The notes: generated by a model from the sequence alone, not told the origin. A stretch of DNA of 49,748 nucleotides from Candidatus Methanomethylicia archaeon (GCA_038845975.1 JAWBQF010000018.1:1-49748), one strand, 5' to 3'. Numbered from the stretch's first letter, positions 22,472 through 49,748 are shown. Program-made: numbers and translations.

Positions 22472-23440
22472 TCATCCATTAGAGATATGTAAATGTTTAA
22501 GAGCTTCTTCGACTTCTTTACTGAAGCATTCCAGAAATTCTTCTAGCCTATCTTTAGGTATTTTCGCTCCTGCTGCTTTACGGTGTCCTCCACCACTACC
22601 ATCATATTTGCTAGCTACGTTTCTTACTATCAAGTTTAAATCTATAAGGTTGGATTCTGTTCTAATACTTATATCTGCTTTCTTCTCCTCTATGCTTACT
22701 GCAATTCCCACAATTGCTCCACTTATACTTCTAGCATAAGTAGCAGCCTTACCTAGAGGGCCTTTAGGATCTATTACATAGGATACTTTACCAATTCTTT
22801 TAAAGCTGTTTTTAATTCTAATTCTCATTTCCTCTTCATAAAACGAGTTCATGAAGGCTGCTCCAATAAGTCCTTGATGATGGCTTGGAGGTTTACCTGA
22901 AGCTAGAAATCTAAGTATTTCCTCTTTTCTCTCATCATTTTTCCTAAAGCTCTCTAAACCGTTAACAAGAACTCCAGCTTCAAAATAGATTGATCTCTTA
23001 TCCCATCTACTCAATATCTCCTTTACATATAGAGTATCATCAGCATAGTCGGCTACAGCTCCTATAAGCATAATTCTCTCCATATCGGGATCCAAATACC
23101 TACTTAAATGTTTAAACATAAGCTCTGAAGCACAAGCATTCTCATCATGTATGAATGTTACTGGTAATTTATTTAAATCAAACTCTTGAGGAAGAGGATG
23201 ATGATCTATATAGGTAATTTCACAGTTTAATCCACATATACACTCTTTAAACTCCTCAAAATTATTAATTGCAATATCACTCATAATAATCTTTAAGTAT
23301 TCTCTAGAAATCTTTCTAAGAGTTACGGGAAGATCTGAAGGATTTGAAAAGACTATGTGGAAATCTTTAAATACATTATAGGCTATAGCTCCTGAACATA
23401 CGCCATCAGCATCTCCATGTGTTATTATTAAGCCATTCAT
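22472..23440 (-). CDS. DHH/DHHA1 phosphoesterase (NrnA/RecJ-like)
   Basis: THGDADG, SDI, YIDHH, GGGHRKAAGA. Confidence 0.93.
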   Translation of the reverse strand: MNGLIITHGDADGVCSGAIAYNVFKDFHIVFSNPSDLPVTLRKISREYLKIIMSDIAINNFEEFKECICGLNCEITYIDHHPLPQEFDLNKLPVTFIHDENACASELMFKHLSRYLDPDMERIMLIGAVADYADDTLYVKEILSRWDKRSIYFEAGVLVNGLESFRKNDERKEEILRFLASGKPPSHHQGLIGAAFMNSFYEEEMRIRIKNSFKRIGKVSYVIDPKGPLGKAATYARSISGAIVGIAVSIEEKKADISIRTESNLIDLNLIVRNVASKYDGSGGGHRKAAGAKIPKDRLEEFLECFSKEVEEALKHLHISNG

Positions 23441-34913: not shown

Positions 34914-35177
34914 AAAGACAAAAAGTAGAAAAACATTTAAACCTTACGATCAGTAAAGATTTTCCTGTTAACCTCCAATATGTAGGCTTCTTTGCTTTAT
35001 GGTTTTCAATAAGCTTATAGAATCGTTAAATCAAAATCTTTAGAAGCTGATTTTACTAGACTTCTAGCTTGTAATTGGAGAATAGAGCTTCTAGAAGCTT
35101 AGAATAGTATCAAGTTATTCTGGGTTTATGCTTACCCTATACAGTTACGTTTAAAAGTTGGATTGTATTGCTCATAT

Positions 35178-35702
35178 ATGATTGAAGTGGAGGTTAAGGT
35201 TAGAGGCTGGGATAATGTTGAGGAGCAAATTATTATGTTAGGGGGAGTATTAATTGGCATTGAGGAGCATCTTGATGTTTATTTTAATCATTCATCTAGG
35301 GATTTTAAAGTTACTGATGAAGCTTTAAGACTTAGAAGAGTAAATTCACATGTTGAGTTAACATATAAAGGTCCTAGGATTGGATCTATATCAAAGACAA
35401 GAGAGGAAATCACATTAACAATAAGCGATTTTAATACGTGTAGGGAGATGCTTAAGAAATTATCCTTTAAAGAGGTTATTGAAGTGTTTAAGGTAAGGAG
35501 AGTTTATAGGCTTAATGAGTTTAAGATTAATCTAGATGATGTTAGAGGTCTCGGTAAATACATTGAGGTTGAAGCTGAAGCATTATCTATAAGTGATATT
35601 CCAAGTGTAGAGGAGAAAGTTAGGAAGCTTCTTGAAGGATTTGGATTTCATGAAGAACAGTTTATAAGGAAAACCTATCTTGAACTGCTTCTTGAAGGCT
35701 GA
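35178..35702 (+). CDS. cyaB: CYTH-domain protein (class IV adenylate cyclase-like)
   Basis: MIEVEVK, DVYF, ALRLR, LTYKGP, GKYIEVE, TYLELL. Confidence 0.9.
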   Translation: MIEVEVKVRGWDNVEEQIIMLGGVLIGIEEHLDVYFNHSSRDFKVTDEALRLRRVNSHVELTYKGPRIGSISKTREEITLTISDFNTCREMLKKLSFKEVIEVFKVRRVYRLNEFKINLDDVRGLGKYIEVEAEALSISDIPSVEEKVRKLLEGFGFHEEQFIRKTYLELLLEG

Positions 35703-42733: not shown

Positions 42734-44092
42734 CTATTCTTCAACTTCCTTATCTGCAATTTTTAATGCTTCATCTAATGCATCTATACCTTCATCTATT
42801 TGCTGCTCATTTATTATTAGTGGTGGTGCAATTATGAAGTGGCTTACTACACCGTATAGGTAAACTCCTCTCATCATTAATTCATTACTTATCTTATCAA
42901 CCATAAGCTGTTTCATGGATGCCTTATCCATTTTAGTATTGAACGGCTTCTTAGTTCTTCTATTCTTTACGATTTCAATAGCCCAGAATAATCCTAAGCC
43001 TCTAATATCACCTATGCATTTATGATTCTCCCATAGCTCGCTAAGTCTACTAGCAAGGTAACTACCAACTCTCTGAACATGTCCACTATCGATTAGCCTC
43101 CTATATTCTTCAATCGCTACTGGTAGTGGTGCTAATGTAATTGGATGTGCTGTATATGTGTGTCCATGTACAAATATGTTTTCCTCAAAGTATTCCGCAA
43201 TTCTACTATTTGTTGCTGTAATTCCTAGAGGCATGTATGCGCCAGTACATCCCTTAGCTGTAGTTAAAATATCAGGCTTAACACTCCAATGCTCTATAGC
43301 AAACATTTTACCTGTTCTACCCCATCCACACATAACTTCATCAGCTATTAGGAATACGTCATTTTCATCAGTTATCTCCCTTAATCTTGGAAGATATTCT
43401 TTAGGGGGGACAATAACACCATTAGTTCCAACTACAGGCTCAACAATTACTGCTGCTACATTTCCCTCATTTTTTATTATGTAGTCAACGTATTCAGCAC
43501 ATTGTATTCCACATTCGGGATGTTTAAGTTTGAATGGGCAACGGTAACAGTAAGCATCAGGCGCGTATACTACTCCAGGTATTGTACTTACATGTTCCGC
43601 AAACCATCTCCTCCAGTCTCCCGTTAAAGTGTTAGCAGCTGCTGTAGTGCCATGGTATGATGAGTATCTAGATATAATTTTATACTTACCCTTAGAGGCA
43701 TTATAGAGCCTCACAATTCTTACAGCTGTTTCATTAGCTTCTGATCCTGATGTGGAGTAGAAGATCTTCCTAAGGTTCTCCGGCATAACTTTAAGGAGAG
43801 ATTCTGTTGCTTTAGCACGTATCTCACATGCAAACATTGGGCTAATATACTGAAGCTTTTGGGTTTGCTCTATAATTGCGTTTATTAATGCCTTATTCTT
43901 ATGTCCGAGATTTGAACACATAAGCTGTGATGAAAAGTCAAGATATTGCTTACCTGTATCATCATATAGATATACTCCTTCAGCATCAGTAATATAGATA
44001 GGCTTCCTCCAAGCTTTCTGCGGTCTCCATAATCCATATGTATGTTCACAGATAAACTCAGCTAATTCCTTACTGGACAGGCAGATCACCAA
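42734..44092 (-). CDS. Class III PLP aminotransferase (omega-amino acid/taurine-type); real start possibly CTG 44080
   Basis: YLDFSSQL, SGSEANE, SYHG, IADEVMCGWGRTG, TTAKG, HGHTY. Confidence 0.92.
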   Translation of the reverse strand: MVICLSSKELAEFICEHTYGLWRPQKAWRKPIYITDAEGVYLYDDTGKQYLDFSSQLMCSNLGHKNKALINAIIEQTQKLQYISPMFACEIRAKATESLLKVMPENLRKIFYSTSGSEANETAVRIVRLYNASKGKYKIISRYSSYHGTTAAANTLTGDWRRWFAEHVSTIPGVVYAPDAYCYRCPFKLKHPECGIQCAEYVDYIIKNEGNVAAVIVEPVVGTNGVIVPPKEYLPRLREITDENDVFLIADEVMCGWGRTGKMFAIEHWSVKPDILTTAKGCTGAYMPLGITATNSRIAEYFEENIFVHGHTYTAHPITLAPLPVAIEEYRRLIDSGHVQRVGSYLASRLSELWENHKCIGDIRGLGLFWAIEIVKNRRTKKPFNTKMDKASMKQLMVDKISNELMMRGVYLYGVVSHFIIAPPLIINEQQIDEGIDALDEALKIADKEVEE

Positions 44093-44388
44093 ATATATTT
44101 CTCAACACCTACTAATTTATATTTCTAAAACTCATCTTATAGGTTGTTATAGTATAGCATGAATAATTTATGAATAGACTCCAACATTCAATTACTCTCT
44201 TACTATTTAGAATATCTCTGTTTAAACGAGGAGTATACTGACTCCACTATACTTCTCTTACTGAAAGATATCCTTGGTCTTCCATTACAGTAACTTAATA
44301 CTTAATTGAGAATTATTATATATCATGATGTTGCTTAGCATAATTTATGTGTTGATTTTGAATTGAAACAGTAAAGGTAGTTTAGACA

Positions 44389-44781
44389 TTATTTAGCATC
44401 TAGAACATGTTTCTCAGTAACAATACATGTAAATATTCCTTCTAGAACCTTTACATTATTAGCTTCAACTATAACATTTACAATGTATTTTCCATTTATC
44501 CTATCGATTACTTTAGCTCTAGCAATCATTAAATCACCAACCTTTACGGGAGCGGTAAACTTAACTTCTACCTTAGCTAAAACTACGTTAGGCTCATTAA
44601 CTACAATCATAGCGGTATAGTCTGCAAGTCCAAATGTAAATCCTCCATGTATTAATCCTCTTTCATCAACAGCCATTTTCCAATCAGCTTTAAGCTCTGC
44701 CTCAGCATAACTACCAGGAGAAATAGTTAGAGGCTTACCTACAAGAGTTGGAGATGCATACTTATGGGTTTTAATACTCAT
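44389..44781 (-). CDS. PaaI-type hotdog thioesterase
   Basis: IHGGFTFGLADY, VKFTAPVKVGD. Confidence 0.92.
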   Translation of the reverse strand: MSIKTHKYASPTLVGKPLTISPGSYAEAELKADWKMAVDERGLIHGGFTFGLADYTAMIVVNEPNVVLAKVEVKFTAPVKVGDLMIARAKVIDRINGKYIVNVIVEANNVKVLEGIFTCIVTEKHVLDAK

Positions 44782-45066
44782 AACAATAAATATTGTTAAC
44801 TCTTAAATACCTTCTTAAGCTTTTATACTTGATAAGTAGGGTTACTGTTCATCCTATATGGTGAAAGAGCTAGCTTGAACTATTAAGTAGCTTAAGCAAA
44901 ATAGTTATCTATTAAAGAAGTAGTTTGGAGAGGATTGCGGATTCGAATGTGTTCCATGTAGATATATTAGAGTTTACAGTTAATAATCATAAGAAGTCTA
45001 GCTTGAGGAGGAGAAGTAAGCTTCATGTCTAGAGTTTAAATATGAAAATTTTAATATTGCTATTTA

Positions 45067-46020
45067 CTAAATTGTTAAGTCGTATTCTGCTTTATGTTTT
45101 ATGTCGTTAGCTACTTTACGTTCGAATTTAATCCTTATATCATCTATTTCCGATTTAAATACTAGGTCTTCACTTTCAGGCTCTAAATGAAGACTACTAT
45201 CTTTACTTGTAGGGACCTTATATATTGGTATGGGTTTAGAGATATGCATTTCCTTTCTATTTTTATAGTATTTTAACCCTAATGCTAGTATTTTACCGAA
45301 TGGAGTTAGTTCAACTCTTTTTACTTTAGCTTGTGGAACCTCCTTAACAAGTCCCTTCCTCACTAGACTGTCAATAAGTCTACTATACTTATTTTTTACA
45401 GCTGCGTTTTCAGGGTTTTCATTACACCATTCAATAATGCTTCGAATAGAATCTGAAATACCTCCATGATTTAGGAGAAGGGAAATTATTTTCTCTTCAT
45501 CCTCTTTAGGGTTTTCAAGCCTATATCCTGGAAGAAATATTTCCTGGGGTTCTAGTCCATTAATGCTTCTAACTTTATTAAACCATTCCTCATATTCTGG
45601 CATACCAGGTTCAGGAATATACCATCCTCTCTCAGCAGGTGGGACAATATATAGTGTAACATCTGAAAACATTAATGCACATGTTACAGCTGCGCCGTAA
45701 GCTTCTTTTGTTGTTGATGTTGTATCAATTAAAACCTTTCTCTCCATATCTACTACTTCAAATCTAATAATTGAGTATAGAGTTGAGAAAACATCTGGAT
45801 AGCTTTGGGGATTGTAGCCTATAAGGATAGGTTTTGATCCTGCAAAGCTTAAAGCTCTTTCAAGATCTTTAGCGTTTCTTCTTGATGCATATCCATACTT
45901 ATCCTTTTTCCTATCATATAGAATGTATATGGTTTCAATAGGGTATCTTTTCCTCCAGCAGTTAACACCATCAAGTATTCTCTGATAGTCATGTCCAACC
46001 ATGCAAATTAATACAGCCAT
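45067..46020 (-). CDS. CARF-like (DUF6293/Csa3-type) domain plus winged-HTH transcriptional regulator
   Basis: Rossmann-like N-terminus ICMVGHDYQRI...IYILYD; VLIDTTSTTK matches the CARF D/N-x-S/T-x-x-x-K/R loop; C-terminal LVRKGLV...RVELTPFG wing; SD GGTGAT. Confidence 0.72.
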   Translation of the reverse strand: MAVLICMVGHDYQRILDGVNCWRKRYPIETIYILYDRKKDKYGYASRRNAKDLERALSFAGSKPILIGYNPQSYPDVFSTLYSIIRFEVVDMERKVLIDTTSTTKEAYGAAVTCALMFSDVTLYIVPPAERGWYIPEPGMPEYEEWFNKVRSINGLEPQEIFLPGYRLENPKEDEEKIISLLLNHGGISDSIRSIIEWCNENPENAAVKNKYSRLIDSLVRKGLVKEVPQAKVKRVELTPFGKILALGLKYYKNRKEMHISKPIPIYKVPTSKDSSLHLEPESEDLVFKSEIDDIRIKFERKVANDIKHKAEYDLTI

Positions 46021-46274
46021 TAAATCACCGTATCATCAAATCGTTACAGTATAATATAGGGAAGCTTAGTAATAAATTTTTGCTACTATTTATGTATTAA
46101 ATGTTACAGTTAAACATTTATATAGCTAGTCACTTATTGAACTGTTACTGTCCACTATAATTGCAATTGTCTACTCTAACACATTACCGTCATATGTTTT
46201 CTCTAATTTTCATGGATTTAAAATATCTACGATAATGTTAATATTAATGTTTAAACATCTATATTGGTGTCTGA

Positions 46275-47231
46275 ATGAGGGGGTTAACTGAAAGTATAGA
46301 TGTAATCGTAGATGAAATAGTAAATATTTTTAATATTGATAGTAGACATGGAGGTATACGTCCCATATTAAAGATTAAGGGGAAAACACTTTACGGCTTT
46401 GAAATTCATGATAGCTACTTCCATGATTTAACTCCAACCCCCCATGATAGAGGAGTTTTATGTGTTGATGCTTCTGTTAAAAAGATTTTTGATTTAGGTT
46501 CTCTTCAAATTATATGTATTAAGGTTGCATGGGGATTATGGCGTGGGAGAAATAAGGTTAATTCATCATCAAAAAGAGTTTTCAGCATCGTTAACGGTAA
46601 GGTTGAAGCATTATCTCTTTTAAGAAGTGTTGAAGCTGAAACTATTCTCTTAAACTCTACTCTACTTAGAAGTGGGGATATATGCATTCTAGATAGACCA
46701 TTAATGGCTATACCTACATTTAAGAAGAGCTCATTTGATGTTTTAGCAAGCCTTGAAAATAAGCTTTCAAATAGAGGAATTATACTTGTTGGATTATGTA
46801 AATCTACACAGCTTAAACTTGAAAATGGGGAAAGTATTGTTGGCTATTTAATGTTTAGAAGAAGAGAGAAACCGTGGCTTTACTATCCAGTCTTTGAAGA
46901 TACATATCCATGGATTCTCGGTAGAATTGTTATTGCATGCTTCAACAATGTTGAATATGCTTTCCGAGTTGATATTTCACCAAGTATTTCAAGCATTCAA
47001 GATATTAAGAAAATACTTAGCTATATAGCATATCTACAGGACTCAGCATATCCAGGCTATCCATATCCACCACTACACGTCCATAATGAAGCTAAAATAT
47101 CTGATAGTGAAATAGAGGTTTTAAGAGAAAGAATTGTTGAGCAACTAGAGGAAAAAGCGTTTCTTAAAAGATTCCTGGGAAGTGTTAGATCTGGAGAGTT
47201 TAGAGAGGATATTTTATGGGGGAATCGGTGA
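46275..47231 (+). CDS. nurA: NurA-like nuclease (RNase H fold)
   Basis: CVDAS, ILDRPL, VGLCKST, FRVD, GYPYP..HVHNEA. Confidence 0.82.
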   Translation: MRGLTESIDVIVDEIVNIFNIDSRHGGIRPILKIKGKTLYGFEIHDSYFHDLTPTPHDRGVLCVDASVKKIFDLGSLQIICIKVAWGLWRGRNKVNSSSKRVFSIVNGKVEALSLLRSVEAETILLNSTLLRSGDICILDRPLMAIPTFKKSSFDVLASLENKLSNRGIILVGLCKSTQLKLENGESIVGYLMFRRREKPWLYYPVFEDTYPWILGRIVIACFNNVEYAFRVDISPSISSIQDIKKILSYIAYLQDSAYPGYPYPPLHVHNEAKISDSEIEVLRERIVEQLEEKAFLKRFLGSVRSGEFREDILWGNR

Positions 47232-48823
47232 AGATAGGTACTGTTGTATGGGTTGAAGGTGTAAAGGTTAAATTTAGAATTAAGGATGGTGTAAAGATTG
47301 ATAGGGGGCAATTAGCAAAGGTTCAGCATGGAAGCTGTAGATTTATTTTAAGAGTTACTGATTTTAGACCTGAAAGCCTCCTAACACAAGCTGAAGTTGC
47401 TAGATTATCATTAAGAGGAGAAAACGGTGAAGAACTTAACATATATGATAAACCATTAAGATTCTACGATACAGCTATTGCAGTTATAGTTGCTCAAGTT
47501 GAAGATGGATTTAAAGCACATGGTCCAACATCGGTTCCCCCACTATTCTCAAATGTATACACTATTGGAGATGATGATTTAAAAATGCTGGATCTAGATA
47601 GTGGAGATATTGAGCTTGGCTACGTTAGACAGGGACATAGGGTTACAGGTCAACATGTAAAGATTAATGGATTTAAAACATTTCCACATCATATGCTTAT
47701 ATGCTCAAGAACTGGAGGGGGGAAAACAAACTTCAGTAAGGTTTTAGCATTAAATATTTTAAGCCAAAACACAGGGAAATACTCTCTCATCATCATCGAT
47801 ACTGAAGGAGAATACTTTGATGGAGGTGATAGTAGCCATCTAGGACTTGCTCATTCACCATACTCTGAAAACAGACTATTCTATATTACAAACAGTATTG
47901 AGCAGCTATCTAGGAGAAAATATCTCCTTAACGTTAACGGTACAGTTATTGAGAGAAACATTCTTACATGTCCATTAAGAATTTCATGGAATCAACTTCA
48001 CCCTGAAGACTTCATCCAAACAGGTTTCCTAACGCCTCCACAGGAAGCTTTACTATGGCTTCTATGGCGTAAAAGACATGAAGACTGGCTATACACACTC
48101 ATACGTGCAGACTCCAGTACAATATATGAAGATCTTAACAAGCAAGTTCAAAAAGTTACAATAAACACTACAAAGAGAAAAATTAGAAGTATGATAGGAG
48201 ATGAACAGATATTTATTCCAGATGAGAAATTCGATATGTTAAAGCATTTTATGGGTGCTGTTAAGGATGGATACGTTATACTTATTGATCTACCATCAGC
48301 ATCAGAACTACAGGAAAAACTATTAACAGTCACTATTACTAGAAGAGTTTTCTCAGCCTATGAGGGTTTGAAGAGAATTATGCCTGATGAATGGACAAAG
48401 CTTCCAACAATACTAATAATTGTAGAGGAAGCACATCGATACCTTTCAAAAACAGTTTTAAGAGATAGTGGAGAAAACATTTTCTCAACAATTAGTAAAA
48501 GAGGAAGAAAATATAGAATTGGATTATGCTGTATTACACAGATGCCAGGTGAACTTGATGAACCAATTATAAGACAACAACTTACAAAAATAATTCTCCC
48601 ACTACCAACAAAACCAGACTATAGTAAAGTTATACAGTACAGCCCATATCTTGACGGAGCATCCTCAGAGATTAAAACCCTAGATGAAGGAGAAGCCATA
48701 CTTGTATCACCACCATCAGGAATAAAGTTTGCAGTACCTGTAAAAATCCATTCATTCGAGGAACTTATACAGACACAGATCAAAAATGAACTTTTAAAAC
48801 CGAAGTTAATAATTAAAGAGTAA
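47216..48823 (+). CDS. herA: HerA-like ATPase/helicase (HAS barrel plus FtsK/HerA ATPase); start possibly GTG 47228
   Basis: HHMLICSRTGGGKTN Walker A, IIDTEGEY, IVEEAH Walker B, RGRKY, ITQMP; GTGA overlap with the nurA stop. Confidence 0.9.
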   Translation: MGESVKIGTVVWVEGVKVKFRIKDGVKIDRGQLAKVQHGSCRFILRVTDFRPESLLTQAEVARLSLRGENGEELNIYDKPLRFYDTAIAVIVAQVEDGFKAHGPTSVPPLFSNVYTIGDDDLKMLDLDSGDIELGYVRQGHRVTGQHVKINGFKTFPHHMLICSRTGGGKTNFSKVLALNILSQNTGKYSLIIIDTEGEYFDGGDSSHLGLAHSPYSENRLFYITNSIEQLSRRKYLLNVNGTVIERNILTCPLRISWNQLHPEDFIQTGFLTPPQEALLWLLWRKRHEDWLYTLIRADSSTIYEDLNKQVQKVTINTTKRKIRSMIGDEQIFIPDEKFDMLKHFMGAVKDGYVILIDLPSASELQEKLLTVTITRRVFSAYEGLKRIMPDEWTKLPTILIIVEEAHRYLSKTVLRDSGENIFSTISKRGRKYRIGLCCITQMPGELDEPIIRQQLTKIILPLPTKPDYSKVIQYSPYLDGASSEIKTLDEGEAILVSPPSGIKFAVPVKIHSFEELIQTQIKNELLKPKLIIKE

Positions 48824-49515
48824 TAATAGCATTTTAAATCTCTACTACGACTTGCCATTTATGCTATGTAGCTAAACTAATAAATTAGGATGCAATATCT
48901 AAAATTGAGAAAGTAATGAAGATTTGGGGCGGCTTCTAAGAGAATGATAAATACTATATTGGATGTAAACCATTAGAGCATAGTAAGGAGTAGCGTATAA
49001 CTAAATAAATACCATGCATTATTAATAACAAGTACATGTAGAAGATGGGTAAAGTGAAATCCTCATGGAAGATGCTGAAAGGAGTATGAACTTCTAAAGT
49101 TGGCATGACGTATTTCATGAAGATTTATTAAGAGAAGCTGGCTAAGTATTAGTTACTAAAGCTTAGGCTTTAAACTCTCCAAATTCTTAGATTATTCCAT
49201 CTATAGGCTGTGTTTCCTTAGTCTGTATTGATTTCTCCTCCAAAGATAGTTTAAACCATACCCTCCTCCTTAAAGCTAAAACCCTAAGATTAGAAAGCAA
49301 ACTACAATAAAGCATTACATGAATGGTTGAGTTTAGGAAAGAAGTATAGTAAGAAGAATTTATAAAGAATTAAGATATGGATTGATGTGTCTGGAAAGAT
49401 TGAGAGTAACGGATTATCAGATAATGAAATATTAAGATAACGTTAAACTATTATGTTTTAACCACTAAATGCTAGATTTATAAGGATATTGCTGATATTA
49501 TGGTAGTAGTAAGCT

Positions 49516-49748
49516 ATGAAACATAAAATAACTAGGATACGGATAACCTTCAGAACATATTATTACTCCCTTACTGGAAGAGTCTTTAATAGATGGGTAA
49601 TGAAAGAACAGATTGTAGAGACAGTAAGATTTTTAAGGAGAATTCTAGATGTTCAAGAAATAGAAATTGTATGTTTAGATAGGAGGAGAGGGGAAAAATC
49701 ATATTATGACGAAGAGAAGCTGCCAAGAAAAGTAATTCTAGGAGGAAT
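49516..49748 (+). CDS. Hypothetical protein, 3'-truncated by the window edge
   Basis: Manual translation MKHKITRIRITFRTYYYSLTGRVFNRW...KVILGG stays open for 77 codons to the window end. Confidence 0.5.
   Translation, partial: MKHKITRIRITFRTYYYSLTGRVFNRWVMKEQIVETVRFLRRILDVQEIEIVCLDRRRGEKSYYDEEKLPRKVILGG

Follow-up and report, generated by a model that had tools for sequence, protein, structure and literature searches.

A DUF6293-family CARF regulator joined to a second NurA-HerA pair in Candidatus Methanomethylicia, a putative ligand-controlled cassette for DNA-end processing

Introduction

Close relatives of the system reported here are known from Sulfolobus islandicus. In this archaeon the promoters bound by Csa3a, a transcription factor that joins a CARF domain to a winged helix-turn-helix (wHTH) domain, include those of nurA-mre11-rad50-herA and of a stand-alone nurA-herA operon, SiRe_0094/0095 (PMC5587795). 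Overexpression of Csa3b raises nurA-rad50-mre11-herA 2.4- to 3-fold (PMC7480081). We analysed a 49,748-bp stretch of DNA (the window) from Candidatus Methanomethylicia archaeon (GCA_038845975.1, JAWBQF010000018.1:1-49748). It carries a gene for a CARF-wHTH protein (p1) head-to-head with genes for a NurA-type protein (p2) and a HerA-type ATPase (p3). This triad is a cis-wired variant of a known theme, the control of NurA-HerA by CARF-wHTH factors.

Like Csa3a and Csa3b (structures 2wte and 6wxq), p1 is a CARF-wHTH factor that would act on NurA-HerA promoters, and Csa3 is its top Foldseek match. Yet Csa3 is encoded in a CRISPR-cas locus, exerts its effect in trans and is a binder of cyclic tetraadenylate (cA4), whereas p1 is linked in cis to the pair in the triad genomes and does not lie beside cas genes. 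The sequence family differs as well. Neither Csa3 nor APE2256 is among the Pfam and NCBIfam matches of p1, and a PDB profile search with its sequence returns wHTH proteins only and no solved CARF protein.

By sequence, p1 belongs with HFX_2341/Crr of Haloferax mediterranei, with which it shares the Pfam family (PF19810/PF22665, DUF6293) and the Csa3-like architecture. HHpred likens HFX_2341 to Csa3a, its inheritance is vertical, and species that lack CRISPR also have it (PMC11434293). The protein is a global repressor of transcription whose host lacks a type III cyclase, and its ligand was left open (PMC11434293). HFX_2341/Crr is described as regulating transport and metabolism globally, while p1 is linked here to nurA-herA; neither HerA nor NurA occurs in the main text of PMC11434293.

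A linkage of a CARF gene to NurA-HerA is known from Thermoproteales, which have a vertically inherited, CRISPR-adjacent nurA-csm6-herA cluster (PMC3396285). HerA and NurA are also listed as type III 'coevolved' accessory genes (PMC6546367). As in the triad, the NurA-HerA pair of the Thermoproteales cluster is paralogous, vertically inherited and distinct from the recombination pair. In that cluster, nurA and herA enclose a co-transcribed CARF gene of the APE2256/Csm6 type, which stands beside CRISPR arrays. In contrast, the CARF gene of the triad carries a wHTH, is divergent from the pair across an operator-rich shared spacer, and is not CRISPR-linked.

The other side of the comparison is formed by HerA-NurA systems without such a regulator. 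Canonical HerA-NurA (2ygk, 4d2i, 9x1l-n) has the same folds, the same catalytic motifs and the same overlapping, co-directional genes, and provides the closest solved relatives. The triad differs from it in having no mre11 or rad50 nearby, in its separate HerA clade and in NCBIfam scores far under the cut-offs. Sir2-HerA, DUF4297-HerA, TdpAB and mad8 of MADS likewise pair a HerA-family ATPase with a nuclease-type effector. The sequence matches of the triad to these defence pairs are weak (E 1e-7 to 1e-13), and a defence-island context is missing.

A DUF6293/HFX_2341-type regulator linked to NurA-HerA as a unit is not described in the literature searched, a search that most subscription papers lay outside. 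A paper on phosphorothioate-type defence (PMC10853773) mentions neither NurA nor CARF.

Results

Three genes around a shared control region

The window is an entire contig (C18) of a hot-spring archaeon whose 2.77-Mb genome comprises 76 contigs and is 93 % complete. A reading of the window from its letters alone (the sequence-only reading) had proposed a signal-regulated defence or repair module, with a CARF-like wHTH gene head-to-head with nurA-herA across 254 bp. The coordinates of the open reading frames (ORFs) agree with this layout. The features, with the evidence for each in brackets, are:

45067..46020, minus strand: p1, regulator with CARF and winged-helix domains, 317 aa (ORF, Pfam, PADLOC, AlphaFold2 (AF2), Foldseek, VIA)
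46021..46274, no strand assigned: divergent control region common to p1 and p2, 254 bp (ORF coordinates)
46275..47231, plus strand: p2, divergent NurA-type nuclease by prediction, 318 aa (ORF, NCBIfam, alignments, AF2, Foldseek)
47216..48823, plus strand: p3, HerA-type hexameric ATPase/translocase, 535 aa (ORF, Pfam, sequence match to solved HerA, tree)

The p2 and p3 genes overlap by 16 nt (47216-47231) and are probably translationally coupled. The GC content of the triad (0.33-0.34) equals that of the rest of the contig. The genes of the window belong to central metabolism, among them TIM, FBPase, thiolase, a 2-oxoacid dehydrogenase complex and aminotransferases. The sequence-only reading had also noted that mre11, rad50, cas genes and CRISPR arrays are missing here. 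We likewise found no Mre11, Rad50 or Cas family in a Pfam scan of 35 of the 44 ORFs of at least 100 aa (the remaining nine are mostly shadow ORFs), and no CRISPR-like repeat array in the 49,748 bp.

Conservation of the triad

The three genes form a conserved unit; the sequence-only reading had proposed a three-gene system and named its conservation as a point to test. An ortholog of p2 was found in 10 of 40 relatives searched (E 1e-83 to 1e-101), and all 10 show p1 divergent from p2-p3. Identity to the window's proteins in these relatives is 52-65 % for p1, 35-44 % for p2 and 54-60 % for p3. We then turn to a phylum sample of 301 evenly chosen genomes, 17 of which have the p2 type and 22 the p1 family. 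By coordinates, p1 is adjacent to p2 and divergent from it in all 17 p2-positive genomes, with spacers of about 250-380 bp. This arrangement spans at least six families while the flanking genes change. Hence it is not a matter of chance. The p2-subfamily profile found no NurA at E <= 1e-20 in other families of this sample.

The full triad is also present in all eight more distant loci that were fetched. An exact look-up identifies distant copies as public proteins of Infirmifilum uzonense (AKG38369-71) and Infirmifilum sp. NZ, and the 90 % clusters of these copies include proteins of I. lucidum and Thermofilum pendens. In I. uzonense the ortholog of p1 is MA03_02520. The public annotations of the Infirmifilum copies read ATP-binding protein, NurA, and hypothetical or HTH regulator. 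Overall, p1-p2 adjacency was seen in 24 genomes, and HerA was checked in 21 of them.

The regulator p1

p1 is a predicted CARF-wHTH transcription factor of the HFX_2341/DUF6293 family. Its residues 3-130 match the Pfam model HFX_2341_N (PF19810) at 33.4 bits, above the gathering cut-off of 30 (E 6.8e-8). The match to DUF6293_C (PF22665) is sub-threshold, with 21.7 bits against a cut-off of 27 (E 2.8e-4). Among 110 homologs returned, 68 carry PF19810 or PF22665 in precomputed annotation and 42 carry neither; five are named 'DUF6293 family protein'. PADLOC gives a weak match to CARF3 (8.3e-8).

The CARF fold, which the sequence-only reading had assigned from likeness, is confirmed by structure comparison. 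The AF2 model of p1 (pLDDT 87.2, built from a 24-sequence alignment, A2) has only CARF proteins among its best Foldseek matches: Csa3 (2wte, 3.1e-8), Csa3 with cA4 (6wxq), Csm6, Sis0811/Sso1393, Can2 and Card1. The probability is 1.0 for Csa3, Csm6, Can2 and Card1. VIA aligns residues 1-165 with the CARF domain of Can2 (Z 15.9, root-mean-square deviation 1.8, 121 residues) and with about 20 other CARF entries (Z 13-15), and residues 169-268 with MarR-type wHTH domains (Z about 13). The architecture is thus of the Csa3 type, a CARF domain (1-165) followed by a C-terminal wHTH (169-268). A tail at about 250-317 (45067-45260), with a long helix predicted at 286-314, is present in the p1 of the window and its nearest relatives and absent from most orthologs.

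In CARF domains, the loop crown at the C-terminal ends of the strands is the ligand-binding site. In p1 the invariant residues lie at the C-terminal ends of strands b1 to b4, as judged from the 24 aligned sequences and the AF2 model: G9/D11; D36-K38-D40-G43-S46-N49; N70-P71-Q72; and D99-T101-S102-K105-E106. The CARF signature that follows strand b4 is [DN]x[ST]xxx[RK]. The p1 segment D99-T-T101-S-T-T-K105, at the end of the strand 95-99, fits it; across the alignment D99 and T101 never vary, and conservation of K105 reaches at least 90 %.

The nuclease p2 and the ATPase p3

p2 has a NurA fold with a complete catalytic set, and its nuclease activity is predicted from the model and the alignments. 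Sequence models hardly recognise it. Pfam NurA (PF09376) has no match in p2 at E <= 1, and a genome-wide scan with this model returns only the copies on contigs C27 and C44 (see below). NCBIfam NurA_Sulf matches the C-terminus only (3.3e-5). A word-based search with p2 finds four relatives. A profile search of 1.84 billion representatives finds 589 proteins at E <= 1e-3, 17 of them at E <= 1e-30. PF09376 (E <= 0.01) is present in 21 of 23 proteins sampled from the matches of the p2-subfamily profile.

The AF2 model of p2 (pLDDT 89.2) matches S. solfataricus NurA (2ygk; E 1.6e-12, TM-score 0.59). Further Foldseek matches are NurA of the T. kodakarensis HerA-NurA complex (9x1n), TdpB of TdpAB and P. 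furiosus NurA (3tal). In a 24-row alignment that includes canonical NurAs, D65, E120, D140, K176 and GYP261-263 are invariant. H270 is conserved inside the p2 subfamily and replaced by D in some canonical rows. D65, E120 and D140 presumably play the acidic catalytic roles that such residues have in the NurAs of S. solfataricus and P. furiosus. The divergent motifs quoted in the sequence-only reading are indeed in the translations: VDAS holds D65, ILDRPL holds D140, and SRTGGGKT is found in p3.

p3 is a HerA-type ATPase with intact Walker A (SRTGGGKT, K170), Walker B (VEEAH, E404 and E405) and arginine (KRGRKY) motifs. It matches PF01935 (DUF87, HerA) over the full model length (1.7e-16), and its best solved relative by sequence is S. 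solfataricus HerA (4d2i, 1.3e-20). Across 14 orthologs 124 residues do not vary, among them K170, E404/E405 and R429/R431. NCBIfam equivalogs are far under their cut-offs, with HerA at 72.9 against 970 and 70.2 against 800 bits and, for p2, NurA at 23.3 against 400. The p3 equivalogs concerned (HerA, antiphage HerA, CedD) all fall far short. A Ced/Ted-like role of p3 in DNA transfer was considered and rejected (CedD 70 bits against 600, CedB 20.6 against 700, no membrane partners).

Operator-like sites in the control region

The spacer between p1 and nurA carries three copies of GTTACNGT, all on the plus strand. It is the sole intergenic place in the 2.77-Mb genome with at least three GTTACNGT within 200 bp; the two other genomic clusters of three sites are Thr-Val coding repeats. 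Paired non-overlapping GTTACNGT sites elsewhere in the genome all lie within ORFs. The elements of the spacer are:

46043..46050, plus strand: O1, GTTACAGT, operator-like, 23-30 nt from the p1 start codon
46103..46110, plus strand: O2, GTTACAGT, operator-like
46144..46151, plus strand: O3, GTTACTGT, operator-like
46183..46190, plus strand: weaker site ATTACCGT, about 27 nt upstream of the putative nurA TATA box
46217..46226, plus strand: putative TATA box TTTAAAATAT of the presumed nurA-herA promoter, 49-58 nt upstream of the nurA ATG

The sites are conserved between genomes. Sites that agree with GTTAC-N-GTAAC in at least 8 of 10 positions occur 6.0 times per kb in 13 distinct spacers, compared to 0.68 per kb in the window. 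Two positions come back from spacer to spacer, about 57 and 77 nt away from the p1 ATG, and a third lies about 150-190 nt upstream of nurA. The core TACNGT is found 79 times in 20 distinct spacers, compared to 10.6 +/- 3.6 times in 1000 mononucleotide shuffles (maximum 22). Per kb it occurs 13.8 times in spacers and 1.3 times in whole loci, and 17 of the 20 spacers hold at least two. Spacers of the Thermofilaceae type retain the TAC-N-GT core. Short spacers of relatives have TTAC-N-GT sites at positions similar to that of the weaker site ATTACCGT. The string TTTAAAATAT/TTAAAATAT stands just upstream of nurA in 8 of 12 other distinct spacers. The conserved palindromes argue for DNA binding by p1.

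Four perfect palindromes exist in the genome, two of them intergenic. These two, GTTACCGTAAC and GTTACTGTAAC, lie at C1:72484 (L068 ~1985) and C4:53237 (L066 ~1238); one is 333 nt upstream of a TIP49/RuvB-like AAA+ gene and the other 72 nt upstream of a bPH/zinc-ribbon gene.

A canonical pair elsewhere in the genome

The genome has a separate canonical locus, which the sequence-only reading had named as a point to check. Contig C27 carries, contiguously, NurA (445 aa), HerA (543 aa), a Mre11-type phosphoesterase (390 aa) and Rad50 with a zinc hook (905 aa). A cas1 gene lies about 8 kb from this operon (C27:10189-10971). A third, unusually long and very divergent NurA (587 aa) and HerA (589 aa) are encoded on contig C44 (L011 720-2483 and 4859-6628). 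A formamidase-like gene and a small ORF stand between the two, and a branched-chain amino-acid ABC transporter is encoded next to them.

HerA of the triad does not group with housekeeping orthologs. A tree of 23 HerAs places the 14 from triads in a single clade (SH-aLRT 99, stem length 1.53), separate from the canonical sequences; the HerA of C44 sits on a long branch. The tree follows taxonomy, and its five rows from one family (f33) are monophyletic. Of five further triad genomes checked, four encode a canonical HerA next to NurA; the fifth (G011) has only another divergent pair. Triad HerA is as conserved as canonical HerA: its identity to four genomes is 52, 48.5, 55.5 and 60 %, compared to 53, 50, 48 and 36 % for canonical HerA in the same genomes.

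Neighbouring features

A gene-poor stretch 3' of herA (48850-49440) varies between strains. The contigs of one DNA run leave 48850-49213 uncovered, another run has a 543-letter insert at 49436-49442, and several DNA contigs terminate at 49226-49310. The same contig encodes a DHH/DHHA1 phosphoesterase (22472-23440, minus strand) and a CYTH-domain protein (35163-35702, plus strand). Some members of both families act on nucleotide messengers; we see no link of these two genes to the triad. The sole Rfam match in 44000-49748, snoR136, was rejected, since it scores 26.2 bits against a cut-off of 43 and lies within the p1 coding region.

Discussion

A conditional machine for DNA ends

We lean, with modest confidence, towards the following reading. 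The cassette is a ligand-gated, autoregulated second machine for DNA-end resection, with a role in chromosome maintenance. It is self-contained, vertically inherited and made up of three genes. Because the cell also has the canonical nurA-herA-mre11-rad50 operon, the second NurA-HerA would be a conditional DNA-end processor.

In the proposed mechanism p1 is probably dimeric, as every solved CARF protein is. It would bind the GTTAC-N-GTAAC-like palindromes in the 254-bp spacer and through them control its own promoter and the divergent nurA-herA operon. A small ligand, probably derived from a nucleotide, would bind the CARF loop crown and change DNA binding, so that the operon is switched by a cellular signal. 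Control would most likely take place at transcription, via the operator-like palindromes, rather than by direct gating of the enzyme. By homology, p2 and p3 may form a machine of a NurA dimer and a HerA hexamer that threads, resects or degrades DNA ends. Such a second machine could serve chromosome maintenance in the response to damage or replication stress.

Several observations weigh against this reading. GTTACNGT is common genome-wide. There are 335 copies, of which 75 are intergenic, permuted control words are about as frequent, and a genome-wide regulon search with the word shows no intergenic enrichment. Hence the case for operators rests on clustering and on conservation across genomes, and the 14 copies in the window, compared to 2.6 in shuffles, overstate it. 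Furthermore, the positions of the sites relative to putative TATA boxes, including that of p1, vary between lineages. Activation and repression can therefore not be told apart from sequence.

Expression lends the reading weak support. One metatranscriptome run (X17) contains four matching contigs, 176-380 nt long and about 99 % identical (2-3 mismatches each), on p2 (46280-46831) and p3 (47224-47775). They establish presence in the RNA library only; DNA carry-over is possible, and neither strand nor start can be read from them. No contig in this single run covers p1 or the flanks, from which we draw no inference.

Finally, the regulator occurs without the pair. Orthologs of p1 with 50-57 % identity lack nurA-herA in Nezhaarchaeales, Bathyarchaeia and others. 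A p1 scan of named genome contigs gave 22 loci, 10 with the triad and 12 without. The 10 triad loci belong to Culexmicrobium, Methanomethylicia, metagenome-assembled genomes (MAGs) labelled 'Nitrososphaerota' and one Thermoprotei MAG; eight of them are the loci of the relatives described above, with identical spacers. Some of the 12 loci without the pair are on short contigs. In the 301-genome sample, 5 of the 22 p1-positive genomes lack the pair, and all five are in one family (f5). Given these orthologs and the global role of HFX_2341, nurA-herA may be one target among many.

Antiviral defence

The sequence-only reading had placed the triad near antiviral HerA-effector pairs. As an antiviral or CRISPR-ancillary system, the triad would respond to a type III Cas10: its cyclic oligoadenylate would bind p1 and induce NurA-HerA, which would degrade invader DNA or supply prespacers, like the Thermoproteales nurA-csm6-herA cluster or the Sulfolobus Csa3a model. 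We think this unlikely, although the parts for it are at hand. Contig C6 carries a type III-D-like CRISPR-Cas locus (L050 2066-13600) with Csm2, several Csm3/Cas7, Cas5-IIId and Cas10, flanked by Csx1 (CARF9-HEPN), a CARF7 protein and a CARF_m5 protein. Its Cas10 (872 aa) has GGDD and HD motifs. By the GGDD motif, the genome thus holds a Cas10 that is predicted to be cyclase-competent, the enzyme that the sequence-only reading had suggested looking for. The nearest structures of p1 are sensors of cA4 and cA6 and ring nucleases. NurA/HerA-like pairs can be defence systems, and TdpAB is among the structural matches of p2. In Pyrobaculum, CARF genes lie between paralogous nurA and herA beside CRISPR arrays (PMC3396285), and HerA/NurA pairs have been counted among type III accessory genes (PMC6546367). 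A MkoA-like helicase gene is also found on contig C6 (L050 15690-17705).

Yet the triad occurs independently of Cas10. We scored Cas10 as present when its palm2 domain (PF22335) was found at E <= 1e-5. Its rate is somewhat higher among triad genomes, 9 of 17, than the 96 of 301 of the full sample, but it was not found in the other eight triad genomes (G011, G015, G027, G030, G193, G297, G303 and G309, 91-98 % complete). Incompleteness of MAGs weakens this absence and does not remove it. The messenger may therefore be something other than a CRISPR cyclic oligoadenylate, since no Cas10 palm domain was found in these eight genomes. The earlier idea of a messenger-controlled DNA-end machine therefore holds only in part: the conserved triad, the CARF-wHTH regulator and the presence of a GGDD Cas10 fit it, while a CRISPR-made messenger is not required.

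The surroundings do not point to defence either. The window has neither cas genes nor arrays, and the type III locus is on another contig. In six relatives scanned, the triad is flanked by housekeeping genes that differ between lineages, such as seryl-tRNA synthetase, AIR-synthase-like, nitroreductase and adenosine kinase genes. Sir2, DUF4297 and Dnd neighbours were not found beside the triad. We found no relative of p1, p2 or p3 in viral contigs; on plasmids p1 has no match and the best match of p3 is only 28 % identical. PADLOC, which gives no cut-offs, matches no family to p2. For p3 its best scores are 87 and 81 bits to HerA models, the latter being the 'type III coevolved' HerA model, and 78 bits to mad8. 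For a match to a known HerA-based defence system the partner effector is missing.

The regulator itself argues in the same direction. Its pocket residues are invariant in lineages without the pair as well, as seen in the 24-sequence alignment. The family keeps 50-65 % identity across Nezhaarchaeota, Methanomethylicota, Bathyarchaeia and one Hermodarchaeia entry. Such cross-phylum identity is higher than usual for CRISPR-linked CARF sensors. Together with a HerA tree that follows taxonomy, the evolutionary behaviour of the triad more likely reflects chromosome maintenance than antiviral defence, and the defence side of the sequence-only reading is not borne out.

A global regulator or a ring nuclease

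Alternatively, p1 could be a general, possibly ligand-independent global regulator of the HFX_2341/Crr type. NurA-HerA would then be a constitutive repair paralog that happens to share an old promoter region with it. We regard this as rather improbable. It would account for the p1 orthologs without the pair, and deletion of HFX_2341 does alter many metabolic and transport genes (PMC11434293). Two more GTTACNGT sites near p1, at 44287 and 44841, lie in promoter-like spacers of aminotransferase and thioesterase-like genes. However, adjacency and divergence are kept in all 17 genomes while the flanks change, and the only intergenic three-site cluster is the p1/nurA spacer. The invariant CARF loop crown is hard to explain without a ligand.

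The two sites near p1 are single copies of GTTACTGT (44287-44294 and 44841-44848), in the spacers upstream of a class-III aminotransferase (42734-44092, minus strand) and of a 130-aa thioesterase-like gene (44389-44781, minus strand). They may be further targets or chance.

That p1 is mainly an enzyme, a Crn1-type ring nuclease (CARF plus wHTH) that clears cyclic oligoadenylates and whose wHTH has no regulatory role here, is very improbable: its whole-length VIA matches are indeed the ring nucleases Sis0811/Sso1393 (Z 14.3-14.9, 198-200 residues; Sis0811 14.9 over 198), but by-eye comparison shows a b1 loop G9-H-D11 without Ser or Thr where PDB titles place the Sis0811 S12 mutants, the family is common in genomes without Cas10 (the triad genomes here; PMC11434293), and the conserved palindromes speak for DNA binding.

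What the regulator family may sense

The loci without nurA-herA show what else the regulator is joined to. In Nezhaarchaeales-type loci p1 lies between a DUF7347 HTH gene and NAD synthase; in three of them (L032, L033 and L037) the DUF7347 gene is directly beside p1. The same HTH gene stands just beyond herA in two triad loci (L025 1164-2078 and L027 1198-2124). It looks as if nurA-herA was lost or gained at one site between the DUF7347 gene and p1.

In Bathyarchaeia-type loci, p1 has a different neighbour. A gene for an OB-fold protein (PF21473) that resembles single-stranded DNA-binding protein (SSB) lies directly upstream of p1 in six of eight loci. One locus (L043) also has an ATP-dependent DNA ligase, split into two ORFs, downstream of the p1 ortholog. 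The feature is:

L038, L039, L041, L043, L044 and L045 (Bathyarchaeia contigs), same strand as p1: SSB-like gene upstream of p1

With nurA-herA in some lineages and SSB-like or ligase neighbours in others, the fixed partners of the p1 family are thus proteins of DNA ends and single-stranded DNA.

These partners lead to a wider idea, which we put forward tentatively and hold to be doubtful. The DUF6293/HFX_2341 family may be a CRISPR-independent sensor of an endogenous nucleotide-type signal of DNA damage or replication stress, and so the core of an SOS-like switch. Its outputs would be NurA-HerA in Methanomethylicia, Culexarchaeia and Thermofilaceae, and the SSB-like protein in Bathyarchaeia. 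If this were true, CARF signalling would predate type III CRISPR or exist apart from it.

The regulation of DNA repair in archaea is still poorly understood. The cassette bears on this question and on the signals that widespread non-CRISPR CARF regulators sense. It also implies that the annotation 'stand-alone NurA-HerA' should not automatically be taken to mean housekeeping repair or phage defence. Since this compact unit of regulator, operator and effector is present in cultured Thermofilaceae, both the regulation of repair and the signal of the CARF regulator are directly testable.

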